Source of the DNA: Owenia fusiformis
Lineage: Eukaryota
Reading direction: 5' to 3'
NCBI GenBank assembly: GCA_903813345.2
Contig: CAIIXF020000001.1
Coordinates: forward strand, 4,836,001 to 4,900,000
DNA length: 64,000 bases
Position numbers and translations under genes: made by a program. The notes beneath the pieces are model-generated. The model was given only the letters and a program-made list of their open reading frames with translations. It ran no database searches and was not told where the DNA came from. Below are positions 11,316 through 51,984 of this stretch, one piece after another. The first letter of the stretch is position 1. Each line of letters begins with the position of its first letter.

Positions 11316-14119
11316 TCAGTCAACGTTTAGTTTCTTGAATGTTCCCGTCACACCACCAAGGTCCCCAGAATGTCCAAAAAGATCTTTTACTTCTTCCAGA
11401 CGATATCCCATAATCCTTTCAAAATAATCTTGGTTTTTATTAAGGGTTTCAATCCATTCCTGAAATAATAGAATGTGTTTGGCATTAGACAAATTCATAC
11501 AGAAGTATGTTTTTTATTGACGCGGCAGAAACAAAAAGGTGAATTGATTTCTGAGTTAAGAAATAGGAAATGAGACTCAATTGAAAACAATTGAAATTAA
11601 TACCTTGTTATTCAATGGACCTGCTGTTCCTTCGTACTCTTCTGGTAGAATTTCAGGTTGTATATTCTTGTGAAGACTTTTCATATCGTAGGCGTGGAAA
11701 GATATCTATAAATGTAATCACAGGAGAACTACAGGAGACAAGTAAGCAGTAAATCTCATAATTTTATGTATAGTACTTTCAGCTAAATGCAAAATATATA
11801 TAATGACAAAACGGTCAAAATGTATGAATTATGGCATGATATGATATGATTTAGGTCTGAGAATGTAAGTCAATGTAATTTAATTTTACTTATGACCATT
11901 GTTAAATATAAGTATGATTTTTCATGTGCTGATCTTTTTATATCATCTACCATTGGTAAATACATGCCATTTATCAAATCAACAAATAATTTGGTGATTG
12001 TACTCACCCTATCCAAAAGTTTGGGTTTCAGGAACATCTTAAGAAGTCCGAATAAATATCCAACGACAGAAGGTTCGTTTACCATGTTCATGCCTTTCAT
12101 TCTTATTGGCATGGCTTCCTAAAATATATAATAAAAATGTGTCTCATTTCAACAGTTTTCAATGAAAGGGTTAAAAGGCTAGACACTGAATATGTTTTAC
12201 ACATCATTTACAACAATTTCTTAATAATTTGGTTTCAATTTCTTTACAAAGACCTTCATCTTCACCAAGAGGCTCATGGGTTGCAATTACTATTAGCCCT
12301 CTAGCCTGGGTGCCTGGGTATGTTTTACCTGTATAACAGCAGAAGCTTTCTTCATATAGGTAGGCCCTATGTTATAAGCCTTTGACATTGTCATACCATT
12401 CAGGTCATTCACAATCACAATTCCATTTACTTGCATGCTCTCATCCTGAAATGATTAACAAATCATTGAAATCACTTGACTCGTACAGCCAGAAATATTT
12501 GAATTGCAGAGCTTGATTCAAGTTTTTAATCGTTGGTACCGGTGTAGGTGCAAAGAAGAGCAAGTGGAGGAGCAACAACACATCTAAGATATGCCAGAAA
12601 GTCTGTCATGCGCCAAAGAATACTCACCAGCAACAACTGTTCAATGCAGACAATGTTAGTGCGAAGAAGCATGGTTATCGGATATTTTTCAGGGTCCCAT
12701 CGACCTGAAAAATTAAATAAGCATAGAAACACTCATGGCTGCAATAATTTTCACATTGTACATATGTAGTCATCTGTCTTGGCAAGTAAAACAACATGCA
12801 TAGTTCATTGTAGTTCAAATCGAACCAAGGAACAGTCATTTCAAAATAAATGTATACACAAAATCTTTTTATCCATTTCAGATATCACATACGACTTGTT
12901 TTTGTTTAAAATTAATCGTATCAAGAATAGGCTGCAATGTCTTTCTTGTATCATTAAGGAACGCCTTAGGAATTATATGAAAGAAAAGGATCCAGAAATG
13001 ACTTTTGGCTTTTAGGCAAAGAAACATGAATTTTTAACAAAATGTAAAATAGGTCTTCATCGGCTTTTAATCATTTATACAGTGAACACCTATGAAACCA
13101 CAAAAAGTGTTCGCTGTAGGTAGGTGTTCACTACAAAGAGTGGATTTAATACGCATACAACAGCTGGAGAGGAGGCAATGTAAAATGTGTCTTGAAGTGG
13201 TGTTCACTTAATAAAGGTGTTCACTCGAGAAAGGTGTTCACTAAGACAGGTCTTGCTGTATATAATAAAACCTGCCCGATGGGTTAACTTTCTGTTAGGA
13301 AGGAACGCCTGTAAACAAGGAATGGTTTTCGAAAGAACCAACTATTTTTCCATTGACTTACATATTAACTAAGCCAATATATGATTCTAAAAAGATTAGA
13401 TTCATATGAATGAAATAAGATTAAGCCAAGTTGAATTATTGATTTTGGCCGATTCTGCTTTTGATTCACTACCTTGTAACCTAGAAAGACCAAGAGGATT
13501 ACGTAACATGAAATCAATCAAGTTACATTTCAGAGGCCACCCTGTAGAATTACAACTCGGTTCCTTTATGATTTTGGTTGTTGACTAAATCTAAATTGTG
13601 GTCGATATGATCCTTACCTGGTCTGAATACAAGTACTTTTCGCCGTTCCTTATCCAATCCTGGTAGGACAGTGACAAATCCATCATCCAGTACTTGCTTT
13701 ACGTCATTAGGGCCCGCTCGAGGCGACAACTTGTCAAACACATCCGGGTACTCATTTCGAATAGAGCAGTATCTTACTATGTTGTCAAATGCCCGCTGTA
13801 TGTTGAACTTTCTGGCACGCAGGAAACGAAGGAGGAAGGAGTCCGATGTGTCCACTTTGAGGCCTGTATTAGATAAGATAGCTAGGCATACATAACTACG
13901 TTTTGAGCATTCAAAACGTCACGTCACGTCGAAAGAACGACAATAACCAATATTGAAAAATGAATGTTGTTATTAGTATGCGTTATCTGTTATCTCACCT
14001 TTATGACCTTGAACCATCTCTCGCAGTTTCTGGACATCTTGCAGTCTTGTTTTGGGATTCTCATTCAGCTCAGCTTTAGCTTTCTGCAAATCCTTCTCGT
14101 CCAACGTACATTCATACAT
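11316..14119 (-). CDS. CRAL-TRIO (Sec14) lipid-binding protein, alpha-tocopherol transfer protein-like/clavesin-like, 305 aa, 7 coding exons
   Basis: Exons 14119-13999, 13863-13618, 12704-12628, 12445-12329, 12118-12008, 11705-11604, 11459-11316 join in frame (918 nt). Motifs: MYECTLDEKDLQKAKAELNENP, DSFLLRFLRARKF, QVNGIVIVNDLNG, AMPIRMKG, ILPEEYEGTAG, C-terminal GTFKKLNVD. A probable non-coding first exon has a GTAAGT donor near 14486. Confidence 0.93.
13078..13260. mobile_element. Small TA-flanked Tc1/pogo-type MITE with repeated GGTGTTCACT motifs (CRAL-TRIO intron)
   Basis: TACAGTGAACACCT start and GCTGTA end; GGTGTTCAC recurs three times, plus a GTGTTCGC variant. Confidence 0.45.
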
Positions 14120-23844: not shown

Positions 23845-24624
23845 TTAGTATCCATATTCACCGTTGATTGATTTTTTTATTGGTACATCAAATGATCGTC
23901 GCTCGGGTGTCTCAGTCGAATAATAGTTCTCCTTGTCCCGAGGGAGGTGTGGCATTTCCGGTTTAACAGTCCAATGGTGCACGATTTCCTGGTCTGAAGG
24001 GCAGGTTAACTTGAATGTCTCGCAAGAATAGGCATTGTTAAGGTAGCGCCAAAGAGCAGTGAACTCTGAAGGGATCTCAAAGTTCTTGAAAGCTTTAGCG
24101 ACAACTCGGATGTGTTGAAGCTTTGGAAGCATCTCGCAGTCTAGGTGTGTTAGGTAATCCCCACAGAGAAACGTTGTTCCCTGCTGGTCTAAGAAGTTGT
24201 TGATTTTACGCAATTCAGCAAGGAGCTGGGCCGATGAATGAGACACTTCTTTGGTGAAATATGAAAACTTTGAAAACACTTCCAGACAGATTTCGTTGGC
24301 TTTTTTATTATCAAATGCTAGGCTAGGACTTGGAAAGTTATCATCGATATACTGGACTATTTCATCGTTATCAGAAACGATCTCATTACCGTGAATCAAC
24401 ACAGGTAAACGACTAGATATCTTCTTGATAAAATCAGCTGGAGGTTTTGACATATTCACTGTAGTAACGGTAAACTTCTGGAGATCTCCACCTTGGCACT
24501 TTAACAGCAAAATCATATGCATTCTTTGACAAAACGGACACGCACCTCGACTTTTGCCATCTTTCCCAGCCTTAACCAACAGTTCCACATCATTGGGTGG
24601 AATTTCTCCCTTGCTTAGACTCAT
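23845..24624 (-). CDS. CLIC: Chloride intracellular channel (CLIC / EXC-4-like, GST fold), 259 aa, single coding exon
   Basis: VELLVKAGKDGKSRGACPFCQR, FTVTTVNMSKPP, FLCGDYLTHLDCEMLPKLQHIRV, FEIPSEFTALWRYLNNAY and TCPSDQEIVHHW are typical CLIC motifs. The ORF track starts at TTG 24657; the first ATG is at 24624. A splice acceptor lies upstream at 24727-24728. Confidence 0.96.
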   Translation of the reverse strand: MSLSKGEIPPNDVELLVKAGKDGKSRGACPFCQRMHMILLLKCQGGDLQKFTVTTVNMSKPPADFIKKISSRLPVLIHGNEIVSDNDEIVQYIDDNFPSPSLAFDNKKANEICLEVFSKFSYFTKEVSHSSAQLLAELRKINNFLDQQGTTFLCGDYLTHLDCEMLPKLQHIRVVAKAFKNFEIPSEFTALWRYLNNAYSCETFKLTCPSDQEIVHHWTVKPEMPHLPRDKENYYSTETPERRSFDVPIKKSINGEYGY

Positions 24625-25686
24625 AGTGTTTTGGAAATATTCCCTCGATCGTTCCAATAAGTTGGTATAGCGGCAATGAACTTCAATTGAAGCTAATCAA
24701 GTAGCGTACTCATGTGTGTATCTCACCTGCAAATAGTAGAAAGTCTAGATTAGGTATGATAATCAAGGTGTCATTTAGTATTGACAGGTAAAATACAAAG
24801 TCTAGTCCACGCCCAGTACACTGGTCCTCAAACCAATAGCAGATTAACAGGTAGTTTATAGTCCAGCCTTGCCTCAAGTGTTCAGTCGATTGCTGTGAAA
24901 AATGTCAATGGACGGTTACTTTGTTTGCTTCTAACCATCTTTTAACATGTTAAAGCACCTATAAAAGTCATACCATTGACATTAACTACCTTGCATCTTA
25001 TGGGAGAGATGTATGATGAATACTGATTGGAAATATGAACCGCATGTTACTCATGTAACTAATACAGGACAGAAGTGATGTGTTGATTAAATCCAAACTA
25101 ACATTATGAGATCAGAAACACAAAACCAATCAATTCAATAGGACCATATGTTATGATCAAGTTGGAGTAAATAACCCTCTTTGCAAGAGCTTAACTTTAT
25201 GTAACTCTTTAAATTAGAGATGATTCAGTGATCTCCCCAGCATTAAAGTAAGTGGGGGCAGCACCCACTTGAAAATGAGAAGTCATGAAAAACAGGCAAA
25301 ATTTGACTGATTTTCGAATGATTTGTGAAAATGATAAAAAATCTGTGGTTCTTAAATGCAGAATATCCTCTGCACTGAAATACTTCAACAGTTAAAATGA
25401 ATGTCAGAAAATCAAATGATAATTCCTGCCTAGGTACATGTAGCTTAAATATTCATTCTCACATTTCAACTCCCAATCAATACAAAACCAATTGTAAGAT
25501 ACATTTGAGATCAGTTGTATAGACCTAGAATTGTCTGTAATAGTTAGAGGGTAGTGTCAGGCTAAATGATGGTGAAAGGGTAAATAGACAGACTGCTTTG
25601 AAGGCCAGCCTGAGTGAGTCAGAGTTCTAAATAAAACTAATTCCATCATTACAGGTTAAGAACAGACTTCATACAAATATATAAAT

Positions 25687-29552: not shown

Positions 29553-30099
29553 TTAAAAAAGGCACATCATCACTATCACCAACGTGCAAAAGTCAGTATT
29601 TTTGCTATAAGTCAGGCAACAATGGTCTATACAACTATATGACCTGTAATAAATACTCATAAGGGACGTTATTATCAAAAAAACTAATGTCATTGTTGGC
29701 TTTTCAAAGATAGCTACCACACGTAACGTTATTTAAAAAATAATCAAAATACATAAAAATTGAATGAAAGGGGGATTGAACAGAGTGGAAATTAATATGG
29801 CTTCAGATGGAACAAGTTTACACTAATTCGGATTTATTGGAAATAAAGTCAAGTAACAGTTCATAGACATATGAATTCCCTCCTCCGTTCAAACCCCCTC
29901 CGTTTTTCAATTTTAATCTTTTTCAATTATTTTTTACATATAAACATGATGGTAACTAACTTTAAAAAGCCAACAATGACATTAGTTTTGTGAAAATAAC
30001 ATCCCTTATGAGTATTTATTACAGGTCTTATAGACCATTGTTACCTGATTTATAGCAAAACATTGACTTAACATGTGAGTGACGATGTGCCTTTTTTAA
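29553..30099. mobile_element. TTAA-bounded foldback MITE (Kolobok-like)
   Basis: TTAAAAAAGGCACATC...GATGTGCCTTTTTTAA, with ~230-bp inverted arms. Confidence 0.7.
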
Positions 30100-30419
30100 T
30101 AGATCTCTTGGAAATGAATAAGTTCAAAAAAGAAGACCTAACATATTTTACCATACAGTGCACAGATCTAGAGCCAGCTCCAGTCTCTATTGGTAGTAGG
30201 CTCAAAGGATAAATTGGAAGATAAGACACGAGCCAAAAATGGCACATCAAAAAAATGACCACCCAAAAATATGACCCTCGTACTGACCTTTATCTATTTT
30301 TTATCTGTCAGACATCTCTTCTTTATGTATTAGTTTGAATGATTGCATGGTATCAATTATTGACCCTGTAATTTGAATTTTTCCTGGACATTTATTTCAA
30401 ATTTTCAGAGCGTAAAGAT

Positions 30420-30685
30420 AATGGAGTGCTTCGGTAATTTCCGGCAGTGTCCGATATTGTTCATCTCTCAAATTACGTCACATCGCAACAAACAGCCAAT
30501 GAAAGTAAAGGATCGCGTAGCCTAACAAACCGTTGTTCTTGTTTCCACAGGAGTTTAAAGATACGTCATGGGACTTCTCGGTAATCTCTGATGATGTCAT
30601 CTGGAGTGGCGTCACATTCTCAGAAAAGACATTTGACTTCGGGAATAAACATTTGAACAACGGAAATAGCCGAAGCACTCCATTA
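30420..30685. mobile_element. MITE with TIR AATGGAGTGCTTCGG
   Basis: AATGGAGTGCTTCGGTAATTTCCG and CGGAAATAGCCGAAGCACTCCATT are inverted. Confidence 0.65.
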
Positions 30686-31628
30686 AATTTACGCTTGCTT
30701 ATTTTATGCTTTTATCCATAGACGCTTTCTTGGATGTGTGGCTTTAGTGATTGGAGTTGAAGCTAACAACAGTACGCATCATTTGAGGTATGACATGTGA
30801 TACTAATTGATAAACTGACTCCAAAATCAAGGAAAAATAAATTTTCCGAAGATCTTGTGTCTTGTCCTTGAGTATATTTATTAAGCCTTCACACCATAGA
30901 GGTAATCTGGCAGATGTCTGTGATACAGTGCACCTATTCATTTAGCGATTCAATTGTAAATTTTATCTTGAATAATAAATCTTCCAGATTTGCTGAATTT
31001 TCTTTTTTTCATGAGGTAATGAGACCAAAACTCCAGTTCAACTTGTGAAGTGAAAAAATGGTGACTGTTTGAATTCAAATTTTGCAATCACAACATGAGT
31101 TCCTAAATAATATATTGTACTTTATTCAAAAAGTAATAAACATTCGAAATTAATGATTGCGATGAGTAAATTGACAAATCATGGGCGTAGCGCTATTTTT
31201 ATGTGTAGTAAACCACCACGGGAACACGAGTTGAGCGAAGCAAAAAACGAGCATTCTGGGGTGGGAGTTCTTTATTCTTCTGTATTTGGAGTGTATTTTC
31301 AACCATTTGGTATGCCTGTGCGAAAGGGGCGCTACATCAGAGCAACTGACAATCAAGGTTTTTTATGACATCAGACCAGTCACGGATGTCTAATGTGTTC
31401 TTAGAACGAGATAGGTATCATTATCAACAAACAAGAATTTGGAATCCCAATCTCCTTTCGCCAGATCATTCTTTTCGACTGTGAGACCAGTGGTGAATTC
31501 TGATTCATTCATTCAGTTCCCAGTTGTCACCCATTTATAAAGATAAAACTTTATCTCAATAAACATGACGAAGGCTAATGGCAATAAATATTCATATACA
31601 TCTCAGACGTGAATAAACGGTCACTTAC

Positions 31629-32934
31629 CATCATACTATGAACGAGTAATTCTTCAAATAATTCGTTTATCTTTCTCTTCAATTTTTGTAATTTCCTGGC
31701 AGCTACAGAAGTGAATGACAATAAAAATTTGATTGGCTCCTCTATTTTCATGAACGACCACAATAATTAAGGGACCTGTCTTTCTGGCAATATTTTATTG
31801 AAATTGAGTCGACTATGCCATCTATGTACAGTAAGCTTATATTAAGCTTGGGTAATTTTACTTATGATATAATTTAAAGGATATTTTCATTTTTAGTTGT
31901 TTTATTTACTATAAAAAGTATGTACATAAAAACTACATGTAATACCAAGGGCTTTCAATTAATTAGTGAATTCACAATAAAGTGGGCTTAGAAGAGGCCT
32001 ATCAACATACTACAATTAACAAGAGCAAAAGGAATCAATTTAAATAGTTGAAAAAGTATCATACAGTAATAATAATATGAGACTACTAAAATAATACTGG
32101 TAAATATAAAAAACTACATGTTTACATACTCGGTAAAAAAAGTAAGGGTGGTCATAAAGTAAGATGTTGTTTGAGTCATTGTTTGAGACTTTGTGCATAA
32201 ATATCAAAGATTCCTATTATAAGTTGAATAAGTTCATTGAGGTCATACTGTAGATATTTGAAATGCCAAGTTTATAGACCTAAGATTACATGAGGGCACA
32301 GGCTTATTGCACTAAAAACTAAATAATCTGATATAAAAAATGGCATTCATATATGTCTCTGGTGTGCAGTATCACAGGGGTACTACCAATGAATTTATTC
32401 AAAGACATACTATTAGATATAGTAATTGATACACAAATAAGAATATATAAGAAACACTAAGAATTAGAGATGGTTCATAGCACAGATATTGGCCAGATCG
32501 TTTTGTAGTAGGATCTCATAGGCTCAAAGAATAATTTATTGAGCTACTGATCCTACTTACAAAATAATCTGGCCGGGATCTATGGTTCATAGAAATAAAA
32601 GTGAAACTCGAAATGTTGATGTTTTCAAAGTTTTGAAAATCAAACAATTATCGCAACTTTAAAACAATTTAAAACAGCCGCCATAAATTCTATCCAATCA
32701 AAGCTAGTATTTCAATTAACTTTGCAGTAATTATTGACCAATGAAAAGAGCGCTTATAAAAGGTGTTGGCGTGAAATAGAAAATGGTCTGTTTGTGAAAT
32801 TATCGCTTAAAAACATGAATATCATTGTAAATACATGGAAATAAATGAAACCGATAGACTAGAAGATACATACATACATCAAAATTAAATTTATCGAATT
32901 ATAGACGTTGCAAGATCAATATTGAGCAAATAAG
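31629..32934. promoter_or_regulatory. Probable divergent promoter region shared by CLIC (-) and SREK1IP1 (+)
   Basis: Minus-strand candidate exon ends at a GTAAGT donor at 31628, with a TCATTC initiator-like motif near 31718. Plus strand has CCAAT boxes (32695, 32738), TATAAA (32755) and a GTAAG donor at 32935. Confidence 0.45.
32481..32584. mobile_element. 104-bp hairpin MITE with 8-bp TSD (hAT or P-type)
   Basis: TSD GTTCATAG at 32473-32480 and 32585-32592; termini CACAGAT/ATCTATG; the interior is almost fully palindromic. Confidence 0.75.
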
Positions 32935-33137
32935 GTAAGAATAATTATAAATCTAAAAGTTTACAGTTTCTGAGTTTCTGATTCAGTGTGTATTTTACTA
33001 TTTAGTGTCGATGAAGGATTTAAGGTTTTGCTCAAAAAATTCAGTTCTGGCCAGAACTTCTGGGTTGTTCAAAGCCACCTAGAAAGAAAAATAGCCCAAA
33101 CTCAGCTCTTCAAATTTTGAGGGGATTTTAAAGTCGG

Positions 33138-34510
33138 GGCAATCTGCGCGAGGTTCGGTTTTTACTTGGTTCGGTTTTTCTTTAGGGAAGTATGTCACTC
33201 CCATGATTCAAAGTACTTTTCTGTCATCGGTTCGGTTTAAGGTGCTATGGAACTTAACAGGAAATGACAAAACAGGAAGTGACAATTTTTTTTGCATTTT
33301 TAGATATTTTTTGAATAAAGATAACAGAGTTCTGGTTTGACCTCCAGTCAATTTAACTATTTCCACATATCATTTACATGACCAGGATCACAATGTGCAT
33401 GGTCAGAATGACCCTAAACATGATGAAATAACCTTTTTAGCCCTTTGAAAGTGTGACTGAAAAAAAGCTAAAAGTAGGAGCGTAGGGAAGGTCACTGAAC
33501 AGAATCTTTTGAATATTTCAGAAAATGTGCCCAATGTATTGCTCTAAATGATACAATCTTTGAAAATTTGATATCATTCATAGAAAAAGAAAAAAAAATG
33601 AAAAAACTGATTTGAAAAGCGATCTATTTTCTTATTATGACCGCCATTTTTGTTTAAGACAATTTTCTAAAATTTCAAAGATTGTACTAGTTAGAGCATT
33701 ATATTGGGCACATTTTCTGAAAAATTCAAAAGATTCTGTTCAGTGACTATCCCTACGCTCCTACTTTTAGCTTTTTTTCAGTCACACTTTCAAAGGGCTA
33801 AAAAGGTTATTTCATCATGTTTAGGGTCATTCTGACCATGCACATTGTGATCCTGGTCATGTAAATGATATGTGGAAATAGTTAATTGACTGGAGGTCAA
33901 ACCAGAACTCTGTTATCTTTATTCAAAAAATATCTAAAAATGCAAAAAAAATTGTCACTTCCTGTTTTGTCATTTCCTGTTAACTTCCATAGCACCTTAA
34001 GTTTGTACAACAAACGTCTACAAATCCAGCCGGGACAGGTTGATATTATGTCATTACATTTGTTTTTGGTGTATATGTTTTGTTTTGATACGAAACATAT
34101 AGGGGGTGACAAAATTACAAGCAACGTGCATAATTGACCTACCAATCTATTCCTTACAATATCAAATACAATATCTCCCAAAAGATTCACAATATGTTAT
34201 AAATTGTTGAAGTTATTAATGATTCAAAGTGCAAAAATGGGTGAAAAATGTTTAAATTCTCCCAAATAATAAGAATGGTAACCATTCTTATAGAAAAATA
34301 ATACATTATTGTAAAAATCTTTCGTTTTCCTTGAATAAAGTTTGCACTTTTGTGATTTTTAGAAAATAGACATGACAAGGAATGACATGAGCCAAAAATA
34401 TTCTAAAATTGATACAATTTTTTGTTTAGCCTGCTCGCTATCTCTGATTCTCTCTTTAATACGCATGCGCCAAAAACCGAATCAAAAAATGGAATCTCAC
34501 GCAGATTGCC
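33138..34510. mobile_element. Older MITE (TIR GGCAATCTGCG; Mutator/Merlin-like) hosting a nested foldback element
   Basis: GGCAATCTGCGCGAGGTTC...GAATCTCACGCAGATTGCC, with GGTTCGGTTTT subterminal motifs; degenerate 9-bp flanks TAAAGTCGG / TCTAGTGGG. Confidence 0.6.
33241..33996. mobile_element. 756-bp near-perfect palindromic (foldback) MITE with TTAA TSD, Kolobok-like
   Basis: TTAA|GGTGCTATGGAACTTAACAGG...CCTGTTAACTTCCATAGCACC|TTAA; ~330-bp arms nearly identical in reverse complement. Confidence 0.9.
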
Positions 34511-34717
34511 TCTAGTGGGATTTTGGTTGTAGGCTGATTACGCCGCAAGGAGGATTGGCTCCCAGAATGCAACATAACACGTGACAGCTTTCAAAATGCA
34601 GTATCGCCATTTTGAAATGTAACCAATTAAAAGACTTTATTTCACATTTCAAAAAGGAACCCATTTTTCGAATTTTGTTTCAGATCTTGAAAAGAATATT
34701 ATCCAAAGACATCCAGT

Positions 34718-38739
<4,022 letters not shown>

Positions 38740-39308
38740 CTAGTGCATGAGCTAACAAAACATGTACTAGATAAATCAAAGTATGATGAAGAAAAACGAA
38801 AAAGACCAGATGGTGCTGAACATCACGGACATCATCATAAGAAGCACAAGTATGCTTAAGACCATCAGTAAAGTGACACAAGGAATCATATACAAACACA
38901 GGCTATAGAACTATGTGGCCAAGCTAAAAGCTAGATGTGAGTTGGAGGGGACTGATAAGAAGGGTCAATCAAAGTTGGATCCTTATATGGATGAGAGAAC
39001 AGTCAAGGCTTAACTCCTAATATGGACATAAGTCTCCTGAGATATTTTATCTTTCAATTAATTGTACTTGACTGTATATTTGATTTATATCTTTATATAA
39101 ACTTTTATTAGAATGCTAGTAAACTCATTGTATGGACTACGCTGAAAAGAAATAATAGAATTTGAATCATGGGAAGTTTGATTTTGATATACTATTAGAA
39201 ATGTTCATAATATACAAGGGTGATATCATTGTAATGTTATAGTCTCTAACTTTTTGTGTTCAACGGTCGGAATCTGTAACACCTGGAAGATTTTGCTATA
39301 AAACTTAT

Positions 39309-39684
39309 TATAACATACCTATGATGATGTATAGTGCAAAGTGCACACAAGACAGCGGGCCAATATTAGTTTTGAAAAGCCCGCGCCCGCTAACTTTCTG
39401 ATTGGTCAAGGCCCTGATGTCATAACCAATCAATCGAAGATAAAACTGCGCGAGCAATTTTTCTAAACTCATTTCAATCATTTTCAAACCATTTGTTTGT
39501 CAATTCTATAAGAAAACGGTACTCTCTGACCAGTCTACATCATCATAGGTATGTTATAAATCGTTTATGTCACTATCGTGGCATATATGCCCCCGGTTCT
39601 CAGATATCAATGTCCCTCCCAAGGTCGGGCCATGTATCACTGAGACCTCGGGCATATATGCCACGATAGTGACATAACCTCTAA
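39309..39684 (+). mobile_element. Crypton-like double-hairpin non-autonomous element (copy A)
   Basis: IR1 TTATAACATACCTATGATGATGTA / TACATCATCATAGGTATGTTATAA; IR2 TATGTCACTATCGTGGCATATATGCCC / GGGCATATATGCCACGATAGTGACATA; ends ATAACCTCTA; no TSD. The structure is clear, the family name is inferred. Confidence 0.6.
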
Positions 39685-40610
39685 GTATTCCATACCTGAT
39701 GAGGTTTCAGGGACATATCAACCGGGAATATATTCCATATCCGGGCAAATATTTTTCGTATGTCCCACTCCAACGGAGCTCCGGGACATATAAATCGTAT
39801 GTCCCGCTTAAAAAAAAAAATTAAAAATAAATTCGGGAAAAAATTTGAAAATAAATATTTGAAAAAAACTGTGCGAAAAAATTTGAAAAAAAATTCTGGA
39901 AAAAATGTGAAAAAATTTGGGAAAAAATGTGAAAAAAATTTGGGAAAAAAATGTTAAAAAAATTTGGGAAAAAAATTTAAAAAAAATTTGGTGAAAAAAA
40001 ATTGAAAAAAAATTTGGAAAAGAATTTTTTTTCAAAATGATAACATATTTTGCAAGTAAACACACCAGAGCATATGGGATACATAGAGGATATCCTATGA
40101 TTTATGAGTGATATGATTTTTATCCACGAATGGATATGATATCTGCACGAGCGAGCGTAGCGAGAGAGTGCAGATATCAATATCCATGAGTGGATTAAAA
40201 TCATATCACGAGTAAATCATAGGATGTTCTTTTTATGTTTGAGTCTGAAGTAGCAAAAATCCATAAACCATCGCATACGACGTCGTATGTCATGGCTAAA
40301 AAACCGTATGTTATGGTTAAGTGAAAATTTGTCAAAAATATCATATTTTACCACTGATTACAAAAATACCGTTTTTATTTTCACATGTTATCCTATGAAT
40401 ATCATGCTAACTATGGAATAAATGCTAATTATTTCAAACCTCATCAGGTATGGAATACAACAGTTATGCACGGTCGGTTTGGATACAGGAAATATCCCTT
40501 GGGATATACAACATATCTTCCCTTGGTCCCTTCGGTCCCTCGGGAAGATATATTGTATATCCCTCGGGATATTCCCTGTATCCAAAACCTCCCAGTGCAT
40601 AACCCCTATG
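39685..40610 (+). mobile_element. Crypton-like double-hairpin element (copy B) with an A-rich interior and a nested inverted copy C (about 40082-40235)
   Basis: IR1 GTATTCCATACCTGATGAGG / CCTCATCAGGTATGGAATAC (40439-40458); IR2 GTTATGCAC...GTGCATAAC; ends ATAACCCCTA. Nested hairpin TAGAGGATAT...GCACGAGCGAGCGTAGCGAGAGAGTGC...ATGTTCT. Confidence 0.6.
39808..40035. repeat. A-rich low-complexity repeat (AAAAAAATTTGG-like units)
   Basis: Visible ~11-13-nt A-run periodicity; gives spurious Lys-rich and Phe-rich ORFs. Confidence 0.85.
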
Positions 40611-48999: not shown

Positions 49000-51984
49000 C
49001 TAGCCATGAACTAAACCTCCTCCTATTGTATCGAGCTGACGTTTTTCCTCTTCTAATCCATGAACCAAACCAACACCGATGTTATCTAAACCGTCTCGTT
49101 TACCGTGAACCATTGCTCCACCTAATGAATCAAAGTTTCTCTTTCCGTGTACCATTGCTCCGCCCAATGAGTCAAAGTTTCTCTTTCCATGAACCATTGC
49201 TCCGCCCAAGGAGTCAAAGTTTCTCTTTCCGTGTACCATTGCTCCGCCCAATGAGTCAAAGTTTCTTTTTCCATGAACCATTGCTCCGCCCAGTGAGTCA
49301 AAGTTTCTTTTACCGTGGACCATTGCTCCGCCTAATGAATCAAAGTTTCTTTTTCCATGGACCATTGCTCCGCCCAATGAGTCAAAGTTTCTCTTTCCAT
49401 GAACCATTGCTCCGCCCAAGGAGTCAAAGTTTCTTTTTCCATGAACCATTGCTCCGCCCAATGAGTCAAAGTTTCTTTTTCCATGAACCATTGCTCCGCC
49501 CAATGAGTCAAAGTTTCTTTTACCGTGGACCATTGCTCCGCCTAATGAATCAAAGTTTCTTTTTCCATGGACCATTGCTCCGCCCAAGGAATCAAAGTTT
49601 CTTTTACCATGAACCATTGCTCCGCCTAATGAATCAAAGTTTCTTTTTCCATGGACCATTGCTCCGCCTAAGGAATCAAAGTTTCTTTTCCCATGAACCA
49701 AGGCTCCGCCTAACGAATCAACGTTTCTTTTCCCATGGACCATTGCTCCGCCTAAGGAATCAAAATTTCTTTTCCCGTGCACCATTCCACCGCCAATCGT
49801 ATCTAATTGACGTTTACCATGCACCATTGCACCACCGAGTGAATCAAAATTCTTTTTTTCATACATTTGGCTTTCATCTAAGGAGTCGACTGATCGTTTG
49901 TCTTGTGTCTTTGCATCAAGATAATATCGTAGGGCTTCGAAATCTTCATCTAATCTGTTAACAAGCTCGTCTTTCTAAAGAATAATAAAAATAGTACACG
50001 GTTAATGATTTATTTAAGGTTATCAAGAGCAAGAAGATTTTTGCTTATTTGATTACTTGGATGCCTGTGAAAACACCATACTTTCTTATAAGCTAGGATA
50101 TTCCATTGGAGGGTTCAAAGATTCACAATTCACAATTTCGTTTGTGACTTAAGATTTATGCTTATGTCTTATTCAATATAAATCAAAAACAATTGAAGTG
50201 CGCTTTTATGAGAACTTTATGATCACCCCTCGTATATCCTACAAAATAACTGCGATACAAATGTTTCATTTCTCACCATCTAATTATCTGCGCAAAAATG
50301 GGACACAGTCGGTTTGCATAACTTGTTTTGAAACCGAAATACTGAACATTATATACAGAAATGAGTGGTATCGATATGGAGAACTTTTTGAACACGTTTC
50401 TCTTAAACCAGTCATAAAAAAGCATATAATATTGAGAGGTCTAATAACATGTTGTATATGCTATTTTGTTCCATCAAGGTTCGGAAAGACATTTCATTTC
50501 ATTCTCAATAATTGGTAGAAAGGAGCAAAACAGTTATATAAAATATTTCTGAATAATTTTCGCATTAAATTGTTGTCAATCAGTCAACATTACATAAAAT
50601 ACCGTGTTTATACATCTAATGTTTTCAATGATTGGTTTAAGAGAAAAACGTTGTTGAATTCAGTTCTCCATATCGATCCTTTTATCTTTTAAAAGCCAAA
50701 TAGCTGTGTTGCAGAAAGAAAAAATATTTGTCCTGCTGATCGACTAGACTCTGAATATACGAAGCGCAAATAGACTAGATGCGAGTAGAAGTAATCTTGA
50801 TTTACGCCATTAAATATTCAAAATTCAGTCAAAGCGATGTTATATTTAAAAATCTACATGTAAAGTACATCTAGAAATATGGATTCGAAAATTGTTTATC
50901 AAGTTTGAAAATTTCATTGTTTTTAAAAGTGAAATATCTTTTCTTGTAGTGGTAAGATAACATTTTCATTTACTGGACATATTTTGATTTGCATAACTAT
51001 TAGATACATAAGGGTTATATGAAAATCGAACCACTAAAACAGATGTTATTTAAGTTAAAGGGATTTTTCTACTATACCCGCCATGCTATCTGACCCGAAC
51101 GAGCCACCTGGTGGTGAAACTGGTAACTACCTACTCGCATCTGCGTTATTAAACCAAATTACAATTTAGAAATCTAGACTCACCACCTTATCTTAAATAC
51201 TGTGAAATTACATTGCCTTTACACTACATTTTGTAAGTGTAAGTGTATAATTTTGGATGTTTTAAATTGCCGAGATCCGACAAATATACTCGAGCGAGTC
51301 GGTGCAATTATGTTTTTCATTATATCATTACTTTCAAGAAATAGCTCAGTATATCGTCATGTCATCATTATTTCTTAATGTCGGGGCTGGGTAAATTGTT
51401 CCAAACTCTAAAACCAAGAATTACGAATAAATATATAGATATCTCAAGCGTGTCTGGACATTGAAATAACTAGAACTCACCACAGCATTTAAGTGAATTT
51501 AGTTTACCAAAACGTTAAACGTAAAGTTGAATTCATTAGGATTGATGTGTAGTGTACATGTAGAACAAATATTTAAAAATGATAAAAAAAACATTTTTGT
51601 TTTTAAGATACTGGATCATTTTGTATCCAAAATGATTACTTATCAAAATATGTTGAATGCTATTTATTTTCTTCAAAAAGTTGCCATTAAATATCAATTC
51701 AGTAATAATTTTCGATGATATATGAATTAACTCAACGAACTGAACTCAACGCAACATGAAATATTCAAGCAAATTGGTCTTAACGTTAAGAAATAAAGAA
51801 AAAAGAAAGAACCATTAAATATCTTTAAAAGCAATCTAATCTTTGTAAAACCATATAAATGCATATTAATTTTTGATATTATATGATATTATTATATAAC
51901 AAATTAGCTCACCTGTACAAGAGGAGCGCTAGAACTACATTGTAAAAGACAAAGTAGAACGCTTCCAGTGATAAAGTTTGTCAT
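49000..51984 (-). CDS. FCAP: Neuropeptide precursor, FCAP (feeding circuit-activating peptide)-like, 348 aa, 2 coding exons
   Basis: Exon 1 (51984-51913) encodes a signal-peptide-like MTNFITGSVLLCLLQCSSSAPLVQ with a GTGAG donor. Exon 2 (49974-49000) joins in phase 0 and has 16x NFDSLGGAMVHG plus QLDTIGGGMVHG, NVDSLGGALVHG, DGLDNIGVGLVHGLEEE and QLDTIGGGLVHG, separated by KR. The core DSLGGxxVHG matches Aplysia FCAP (e.g. ALDSLGGFQVHGW). Confidence 0.9.
50367..50679. mobile_element. MITE (TIR GGTATCGATATGGAGAAC) in the neuropeptide intron
   Basis: Inverted termini; a longer copy in the opposite orientation lies at 55961-56682. Confidence 0.75.

Follow-up and report, generated by a model that had tools for sequence, protein, structure and literature searches.

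A candidate UGA-CUAG readthrough site followed by a coding-like His/Lys-rich extension in an invertebrate SREK1IP1 gene

We have found that the reading frame of a SREK1IP1 gene, on the + strand of a 64,000-nucleotide stretch of DNA (the window), stops at a TGA directly followed by CTAG and then stays open for another 39 codons that are clearly coding-like. Both the motif and the open frame are present in the mature mRNA of several individuals, and the coding-like signature is confined to the extension. From these observations we infer that readthrough occurs at some rate and that selection on the translated product has shaped the extension. We put the probability of this reading, present-day readthrough at UGA-CUAG with an extension shaped by its translation, at roughly 0.55. 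UGA-CUAG readthrough in SREK1IP1 is thus a good but unproven candidate, and judged from the sequence a 202-aa form is probably made besides the 162-aa form.

Gene model and RNA evidence

RNA data over positions 30000-39600 came from the raw RNA-seq runs X22 and X23 and from contigs of the runs X7 and X12. Variants and joints are given here as the best-supported entries listed, with a variant threshold of 5%; beyond them there were 205 differences, 17 indels and 27 joints. The reads define a five-exon gene on the + strand with four GT..AG introns, and the first mates fall almost all on the - strand, the orientation that standard stranded libraries give for a + strand mRNA. Its parts upstream of the stop are as follows.

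End at 32934, +: upstream non-coding exon (joint 32934->34703)
34684..34736, +: exon with the start codon, ATG at 34718 (joints 32934->34703 and 34734->36113)
36115..36180, +: coding exon, first half of the CCHC zinc knuckle (…CRKCGY) (joints 34734->36113 and 36179->36661, GT..AG)
36662..36793, +: coding exon, second half of the knuckle and conserved block (family matches, invariant alignment columns)
37614..37680, +: coding exon, basic, K/E-rich (joints 36791->37612 and 37678->38533, GT..AG)
38535..38736, +: last exon, canonical coding part, a Ser/Asp block and then a His/Lys block

The reads supporting each joint in the two raw runs are as follows.

34734->36113: X22 12, X23 23
36179->36661: X22 16, X23 36
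36791->37612: X22 36, X23 36 (and 1 on the + strand)
37678->38533: X22 39, X23 46

The gene had been called SREK1IP1 in the first-pass annotation, and its sequence identifies it as such, that is, as the gene of a CCHC zinc-knuckle splicing-associated protein. The exon-2 peptide (36662..36793) matches 168 family proteins (E <= 0.01), many of them named SREK1IP1 and carrying PF13917; the identity of exon 2 is alike for insects and molluscs. The N-terminal zinc knuckle, C-x2-C-x4-H-x4-C, is present and is followed by the conserved block, with 22 invariant columns in the family alignment (A1). Because the CCHC knuckle is split over two exons, Pfam sees only half of it, and zf-CCHC_3 on this half scores 15.8 bits, below the cut-off of 27. 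No Pfam domain was found in the last exon with its extension, and the window holds no paralogue of SREK1IP1. For Arabidopsis, PMC11702985 links the counterpart CXIP4 to splicing of pre-mRNA.

The RNA data also cover the stop. A contig of X7 (record 15, 471 nt), from a study other than that of the best DNA source, aligns over 38533-38859 without gaps and differs only by the two SNPs at 38807 and 38819; the extension frame is intact. As this contig carries the same TGA, an assembly error at the stop is excluded. The raw reads of X22 and X23, at depths of ~42 and ~32 in the bin 38667-38987, have no variant listed at 38737-38743. RNA depth over the extension equals that over the coding sequence, and the RNA is spliced and of + strand. 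A contig of X12 reaches 39312, which places the extension well within the 3'UTR of the mature mRNA. Among the joints listed none bypasses the stop, 37678->38533 being the sole one into the last exon.

Two observations concern the data themselves. In the 5'UTR part of the ATG exon, 34684-34702, the reads have two substitutions and lack one base relative to the window, with 18 letters between the sides of the joint, a further sign of high heterozygosity. Run X12, tentatively taken as DNA, yields contigs with splice joints (e.g. 36179->36661), so it is derived from cDNA or RNA and provides no DNA control for editing.

The stop site and the extension

The features at and beyond the stop are as follows.

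38737-38739, +: first stop codon, TGA (also in the X7 RNA contig; no variant listed in the RNA reads)
38740-38743, +: CTAG at +1 to +4, abutting the 3' side of the stop, the core readthrough motif (role as given in Loughran 2014, PMC4132726, and Toledano 2026)
38740-38856, +: in-frame extension of 39 sense codons, LVHELTKHVLDKSKYDEEKRKRPDGAEHHGHHHKKHKYA, hydrophilic, K/H/D/E-rich and coding-like
38740-38770, +: predicted RNA hairpin, 10-bp stem with one G-U pair and 11-nt loop
38807, +: SNP C>A, P to Q at codon 186 (50/56 and 38/49 reads)
38809..38836, +: second predicted hairpin, within the extension
38819, +: SNP A>C, E to A at codon 190 (41/52 and 34/44 reads)
38857-38859, +: second stop, TAA, with G as the next base
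38860-39312, +: remainder of the 3'UTR, non-coding-like and highly polymorphic (spanned by the X12 contig 38533-39312)

The coordinates of TGA, CTAG and TAA and the extension peptide given in the first-pass annotation match exactly when the sequence is read again, and its isoform sizes are those obtained by joining the RNA-supported exons, 162 aa where the frame is ended at the TGA and 202 aa where it runs on to the TAA. Four codons beyond the second stop there is a third stop in frame, the TAA at 38869-38871. The canonical coding sequence contains no in-frame TGA. The codon at -1 is GAA, which is not among the Pro and Gly codons reported to abolish readthrough; that at -2, CCG, encodes Pro. 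The context of the stop is the leaky motif UGA-CUAG as published (Loughran 2014, PMC4132726), again as the first-pass annotation had it, and the features of this class found here are a UGA as first stop, CUAG at +1 to +4 and an in-frame extension within the mature mRNA.

In the mechanism that we propose, about one to a few percent of ribosomes at the UGA would, in the UGA-CUAG context, accept a near-cognate tRNA and not release factor. They would then read the 39 further codons in frame and terminate at UAA-G, a strong stop. The product would be an isoform of 202 aa whose second tail is hydrophilic and rich in His and Lys. The residues inserted at a read-through UGA in other systems are Trp, Arg or Cys.

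Published reporter data bear on how leaky such a site may be. In PMC4132726 all four efficient cases have UGA-CUAG and deletion of the motif abolishes readthrough, and in bioRxiv 2026.07.14.738498 764 of 765 mutations at +1 to +4 reduced readthrough, with CUAG as the optimum. CUAG is also described in a subset of Drosophila readthrough genes (PMC13278127).

The first-pass annotation had singled out KRKR in the extension as an NLS-like stretch. This does not hold as a distinctive feature, the canonical tail already having several basic runs to which KRKR adds nothing distinctive, and any role of the extension as an NLS or in a different nuclear-speckle targeting of the two forms is speculation.

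Chance expectation and coding signature

Neither the motif nor the open frame is remarkable alone. An open frame of this length is not rare, at 4-8%: of the 1497 + strand TGAs in the window, 115 (7.7%) have 39 or more sense codons after them, and among 20,000 shuffled versions of the extension 5.0% (mononucleotide) and 4.1% (dinucleotide) remain free of stops. TGACTAG occurs four times on the + strand of the window against ~3.8 calculated from base composition. By our own arithmetic the conjunction of motif and open frame has a frequency of ~1e-4 per gene, or about one chance case per genome, which accords with the 23 human UGA-CUAG genes given in PMC4132726, 4 of which have positive PhyloCSF and most of which are there without coding conservation. 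The candidate was taken from a very large scan and selection bias therefore applies.

It is the coding-like signature of the extension that raises the candidate above chance. The null set consists of the 5000 stop-free shuffles retained from 99,455 trials. The chi-square of base by codon position is 31.4 in the extension against a null mean of 7.2, and the fraction of K/R/H/D/E is 0.64 against a null mean of 0.35; neither value is reached by any of the 5000 open shuffles. A is found at codon position 2 in 64% of codons (null mean 42%, P = 0.0006). Among 631 real open post-stop stretches of the window, true exons included, the periodicity is reached by 0.16% and the KRHDE fraction by none. The signature ends where the frame ends: in a sliding window the KRHDE fraction is 0.65-0.70 up to the TAA and at most 0.2 from 38866 on, where every 20 codons include 1-4 stops. 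Read in its other two frames, the extension has 3 and 6 stops.

The last 12 codons are trinucleotide-repeat-like (CAT/AAG), which produces periodicity even in untranslated sequence. The signature is also found in the non-repetitive codons 1-27 taken alone (periodicity P = 0.0027, KRHDE P = 0.0067), so that the signal is not confined to the terminal repeat; both halves of the extension are significant. Once this signature is counted, pure chance is hard to sustain. An origin of the extension as a duplicate of the gene's own last exon was rejected, the best local nucleotide alignment scoring 18, which 679 of 1000 shuffles equal.

RNA structure at the stop

The predicted hairpin at 38740-38770 has a 5' arm that begins at the first base past the stop and includes the CTAG, and a 3' arm that has a second CTAG. 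This second copy means that the motif is explicable by the inverted repeat, a reason unconnected with readthrough. Hairpins of this kind number 36 in the 64 kb, against 4-16 in shuffled windows, and this is the sole one within 38000-39500. Folding of the 136 nt from 38725 to 38860 gives an MFE of -27.5 kcal/mol (z = -2.65), and none of 200 shuffles folds as well. In programmed readthrough genes of Drosophila, structure is reported to be enriched from ~25 nt upstream to ~75 nt downstream of the stop (PMC13278127). The hairpin here starts at +1, so its 5' arm would be inside the ribosome, and unwound, with the UGA in the A site, which would make it non-canonical as a spaced stimulator.

Polymorphism

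The window has the minor allele at both SNPs in the extension; most RNA reads have Q and not P at codon 186 and A and not E at codon 190. The peptide that the first-pass annotation had proposed for mass spectrometry is accordingly that of the minor allele in the RNA runs. Both SNPs are nonsynonymous, beside a strong single-sequence coding signature, and both lie outside the predicted hairpin stems. The only SNP listed in the coding sequence, at 36714, is synonymous. The SNPs listed number 1 in the 489 nt of the coding sequence, 2 in the 117 nt of the extension and 14 in the 453 nt of the distal UTR (38860-39312); the density of listed SNPs in the extension is thus intermediate and not significantly lower than that in the distal UTR.

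Comparison with orthologues

The C-terminal half of the protein consists of basic K/R/H and Ser/Asp low-complexity sequence and ends shortly past a basic run, as in the SREK1IP1 family. Of the orthologues retrieved, 100 have the knuckle and are 125 aa or longer. In 83 of these the last basic run is followed by no more than 15 residues (median 6.5), and the end is often a short Ser/acidic tail. The canonical form here ends 6 residues past its last basic run and its end resembles that of a gastropod protein (P0107). This fit suggests that the TGA stands at the ordinary stop of the family and not amid a formerly longer frame, a soft argument because the tail is of low complexity and the 202-aa form also ends just past a basic run.

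Orthologous stops were obtained from a metagenome scan with the exon-2 alignment, which gave 80 loci in host DNA of distant animals and from these, by a heuristic composition filter, 43 putative last exons (38 distinct; four, L067-L070, are perhaps not terminal exons). Their first stops are TAA in 22, TGA in 13 and TAG in 8. The first-pass annotation had proposed a search of lophotrochozoan orthologues for a conserved TGA-CTAG. In these last exons from distant animals TGA-C is found in two of the 43 and TGA-CTAG in none, so that the feature is not family-wide and is at best lineage-specific. Thirteen distinct post-stop frames of these orthologues extend over 20 codons or more; their KRHDE fraction is 0.06-0.33 and most are hydrophobic-rich; the 3' flank of SREK1IP1 is thus not generally coding-looking.

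Searches for homologues of the extension gave no match among 1.84 billion protein representatives, no candidate in a word-indexed protein search at near or longer lengths, and no confirmed case among the pattern matches in contigs (593 from metagenomes, 398 from prokaryote genomes and 43 from viruses). Compared by BLASTP with the 120 family proteins retrieved, the extension matched internal basic blocks only, through composition (best 26 bits), and these matches were rejected.

Two groups of similar loci in the metagenome set are of note for their stops. In six (L025, L027, L028, L029, L032 and L033) the last exon has TAG-G followed by a near-identical 10-codon frame (GSKIGRILHM and close variants), a likeness that could reflect close relatedness. 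In four others (L021, L044, L045 and L049) the tail reads …HSSE, stop, two codons, stop, and in three (L011, L038 and L053) it reads …HSSEKHA before a stop three codons later. This offset indicates that the stop position in the low-complexity tail shifts easily.

Readthrough and alternative explanations

The main rival to readthrough is a recently truncated tail. The tail of this lineage would formerly have been ~40 residues longer, a nonsense mutation would have given the TGA, the codons beyond it would be as yet undecayed and the CTAG would be coincidental, although by passing a little full-length protein it may have eased fixation of the mutation. Such a history accounts for the periodicity and the composition of the extension without selection today. 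It is in keeping with two nonsynonymous SNPs, with a tail labile enough in the family for the stop to lie three codons earlier in one group of loci than in another, and with a 202-aa form that, like many orthologues, ends just past a basic run. Yet the canonical end is the usual one for the family, with its Ser/acidic tail ~6 residues past the last basic run (83 of 100 within 15, the gastropod protein being closely similar), no annotated orthologue has anything resembling the extension, and TGA is present in all runs covering the site with no variant listed. A neutral frame of 117 nt would also be short-lived where haplotypes differ by ~3% in the adjacent UTR; 21 of the 351 single substitutions in the extension make a stop, and indels add to these. 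Calculated from composition, CTAG would follow a new stop by chance in ~0.3% of cases. We consider truncation unlikely on this evidence. Some extended protein is to be expected under the readings of readthrough and of recent truncation alike, because UGA-CUA alone gives 1.5% readthrough in human cells (PMC4132726) and CUAG is optimal in the mutational data cited above.

A different view is that the extension is plain untranslated 3'UTR: termination would be efficient, the CTAG would belong to the palindromic hairpin 38740-38770 with a role at the level of RNA or DNA, and the coding look would come from A-rich low complexity and from CAT/AAG repeats that happen to be in frame. The periodicity (P = 0.0027) and charged excess (P = 0.0067) that persist in the non-repetitive codons 1-27 argue against this even though the last 12 codons are repeat-like, and while an open frame of such length occurs in 4-8% of cases, the extension as a whole has no equal in 5000 open shuffles, and no more than one among the 631 open stretches that follow stops in the window. 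The 3 and 6 stops in the other frames and the charge-poor, mostly hydrophobic-rich post-stop frames of the orthologues point the same way. TGACTAG is at its expected frequency, the second CTAG in the 3' arm of the hairpin allows the motif to be explained by the inverted repeat, and most human UGA-CUAG genes lack coding conservation in the data of PMC4132726; complete termination at UGA-CUAG is nevertheless unlikely from the published reporter data (PMC4132726; bioRxiv 2026.07.14.738498). We rate this explanation as distinctly improbable. Another route past the stop, or an artefact (sequencing error, a splice removing the TGA, selenocysteine, A-to-I editing or a variant code), found no support and is largely refuted, leaving it very little probability. 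TGA is present in RNA data of other studies, and the sole listed joint into the last exon, 37678->38533 (39 and 46 reads), retains it. An Rfam search of 38400-40000 (E <= 10) gave neither a SECIS nor any other relevant match. The variants listed do not include A>G at 38739, nor is A>G in excess overall (31 A>G against 29 C>T places listed in X22). The standard code gives intact neighbouring frames, e.g. a CLIC-like one of 283 aa, and no in-frame TGA in the canonical coding sequence.

For the preferred reading, readthrough with an extension shaped by its translation, selection could have acted for a function of the extended form or only to keep the leaked product harmless, a distinction discussed in PMC5100048. 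In its fullest form the proposal is that a spliceosome-associated zinc-knuckle protein of an invertebrate outside the insects has a readthrough isoform which is lineage-specific and selected, with a UGA-CUAG core and a hairpin from the first post-stop base; this we hold only tentatively and regard as somewhat doubtful.

Relation to known readthrough systems

Programmed readthrough is well documented in vertebrates, for a handful of genes, and in insects, for hundreds. The site in SREK1IP1 is like vertebrate AQP4, MAPK10, OPRK1, OPRL1 and also MDH1 in having UGA-CUAG and an in-frame hydrophilic C-terminal extension to a second stop, as those genes are described, and the mechanism proposed for the vertebrate class, near-cognate decoding favoured by the nucleotides at +1 to +4 (PMC4132726; bioRxiv 2026.07.14.738498), is the one that we propose here. 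It differs from them in gene family, in animal lineage and in the 10-bp hairpin from +1. The vertebrate cases are defined by conservation of motif and extension throughout vertebrates and have reporter values of 3.5-31% (PMC4132726), whereas the present one is known from a single sequence and RNA. Its extension, at 39 codons, compares with 13 in MAPK10 and typically 28 in AQP4 (PMC4132726).

With the readthrough genes of Drosophila and Anopheles, as reported, it shares an invertebrate host, a UGA followed by C, an extension that is hydrophilic and disordered, and stop-proximal RNA structure. In flies CANNNG is given as the most frequent motif, with CUAG in a smaller subset, and support for the fly cases comes from coding conservation across several species and from ribosome profiling, that for SREK1IP1 from sequence and RNA. 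Alphaviruses (Sindbis, chikungunya and relatives) have the same heptanucleotide, UGA-CUA(G) (PMC4132726). Since their motif works in both insect and vertebrate cells, it is suggested to act on a conserved part of the termination machinery (PMC4132726). In alphaviruses readthrough is a strategy for a viral polyprotein, whereas SREK1IP1 is cellular and its tail is short and of low complexity. Selenoprotein recoding is similar in having an in-frame UGA and then an open frame, and differs in that no SECIS was found here in 38400-40000; SREK1IP1 is not known to be a selenoprotein family.

The first-pass annotation knew of no report of readthrough for SREK1IP1, and we likewise found no paper pairing the two, supplementary gene lists of fly and human studies aside. 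Readthrough of a nuclear gene in molluscs was not among the literature matches listed. If true, the present case would add a new gene and a new animal lineage to the known UGA-CUAG class, and would be a young example of the birth of a readthrough extension and its shaping into a hydrophilic His/Lys tail. Validation would mean that the activity of the UGA-CUAG core is not limited to vertebrates, insects and the viruses of both, and that a splicing-associated protein joins the dual-isoform genes; the extension being probably young, the order of events (leaky context first or coding-like tail first) could be studied. Should validation fail, the case would be a calibration point, in that motif, open frame and single-sequence periodicity would be insufficient together.

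Other features of the window

High-copy interspersed repeats lie at 35900-36075 and 38290-38470, in introns flanking exons of the gene, and also at 34173-34493 and 39309-39600. The two intronic copies share the core …GGGTGCAAAATTCTCATTTTCACAATT…. The repeats have contig depths of tens of thousands, reads on both strands and many cross-joints (e.g. 35963->38366), and look like SINE or MITE elements. Within a high-copy repeat, 39576-39666 (+ strand) matches mir-4536 weakly (29.4 bits, where the gathering score is 76; E = 0.008); this is probably a hairpin carried by the repeat rather than a conserved miRNA.

On the - strand, 49000-49974 is an open frame of 324 aa with many tandem copies of NFDSLGGAMVHGKR and variant units at both ends, on which Pfam found nothing meaningful. 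Each unit ends in Gly and a dibasic site, the layout of a multi-copy amidated neuropeptide precursor, and we take the frame to resemble the pedal-peptide/orcokinin-type precursors. Also on the - strand, 13553-13918, a frame the size of an exon, has a CRAL/TRIO N-terminal domain (2.6e-08) and belongs to a gene for a SEC14-like lipid-transfer protein, and 23848-24696 is an uninterrupted frame of 283 aa with CLIC-like_N (2.3e-17) and GST N- and C-terminal domains, which appears to be a single-exon gene of the chloride-intracellular-channel/GST-like kind.
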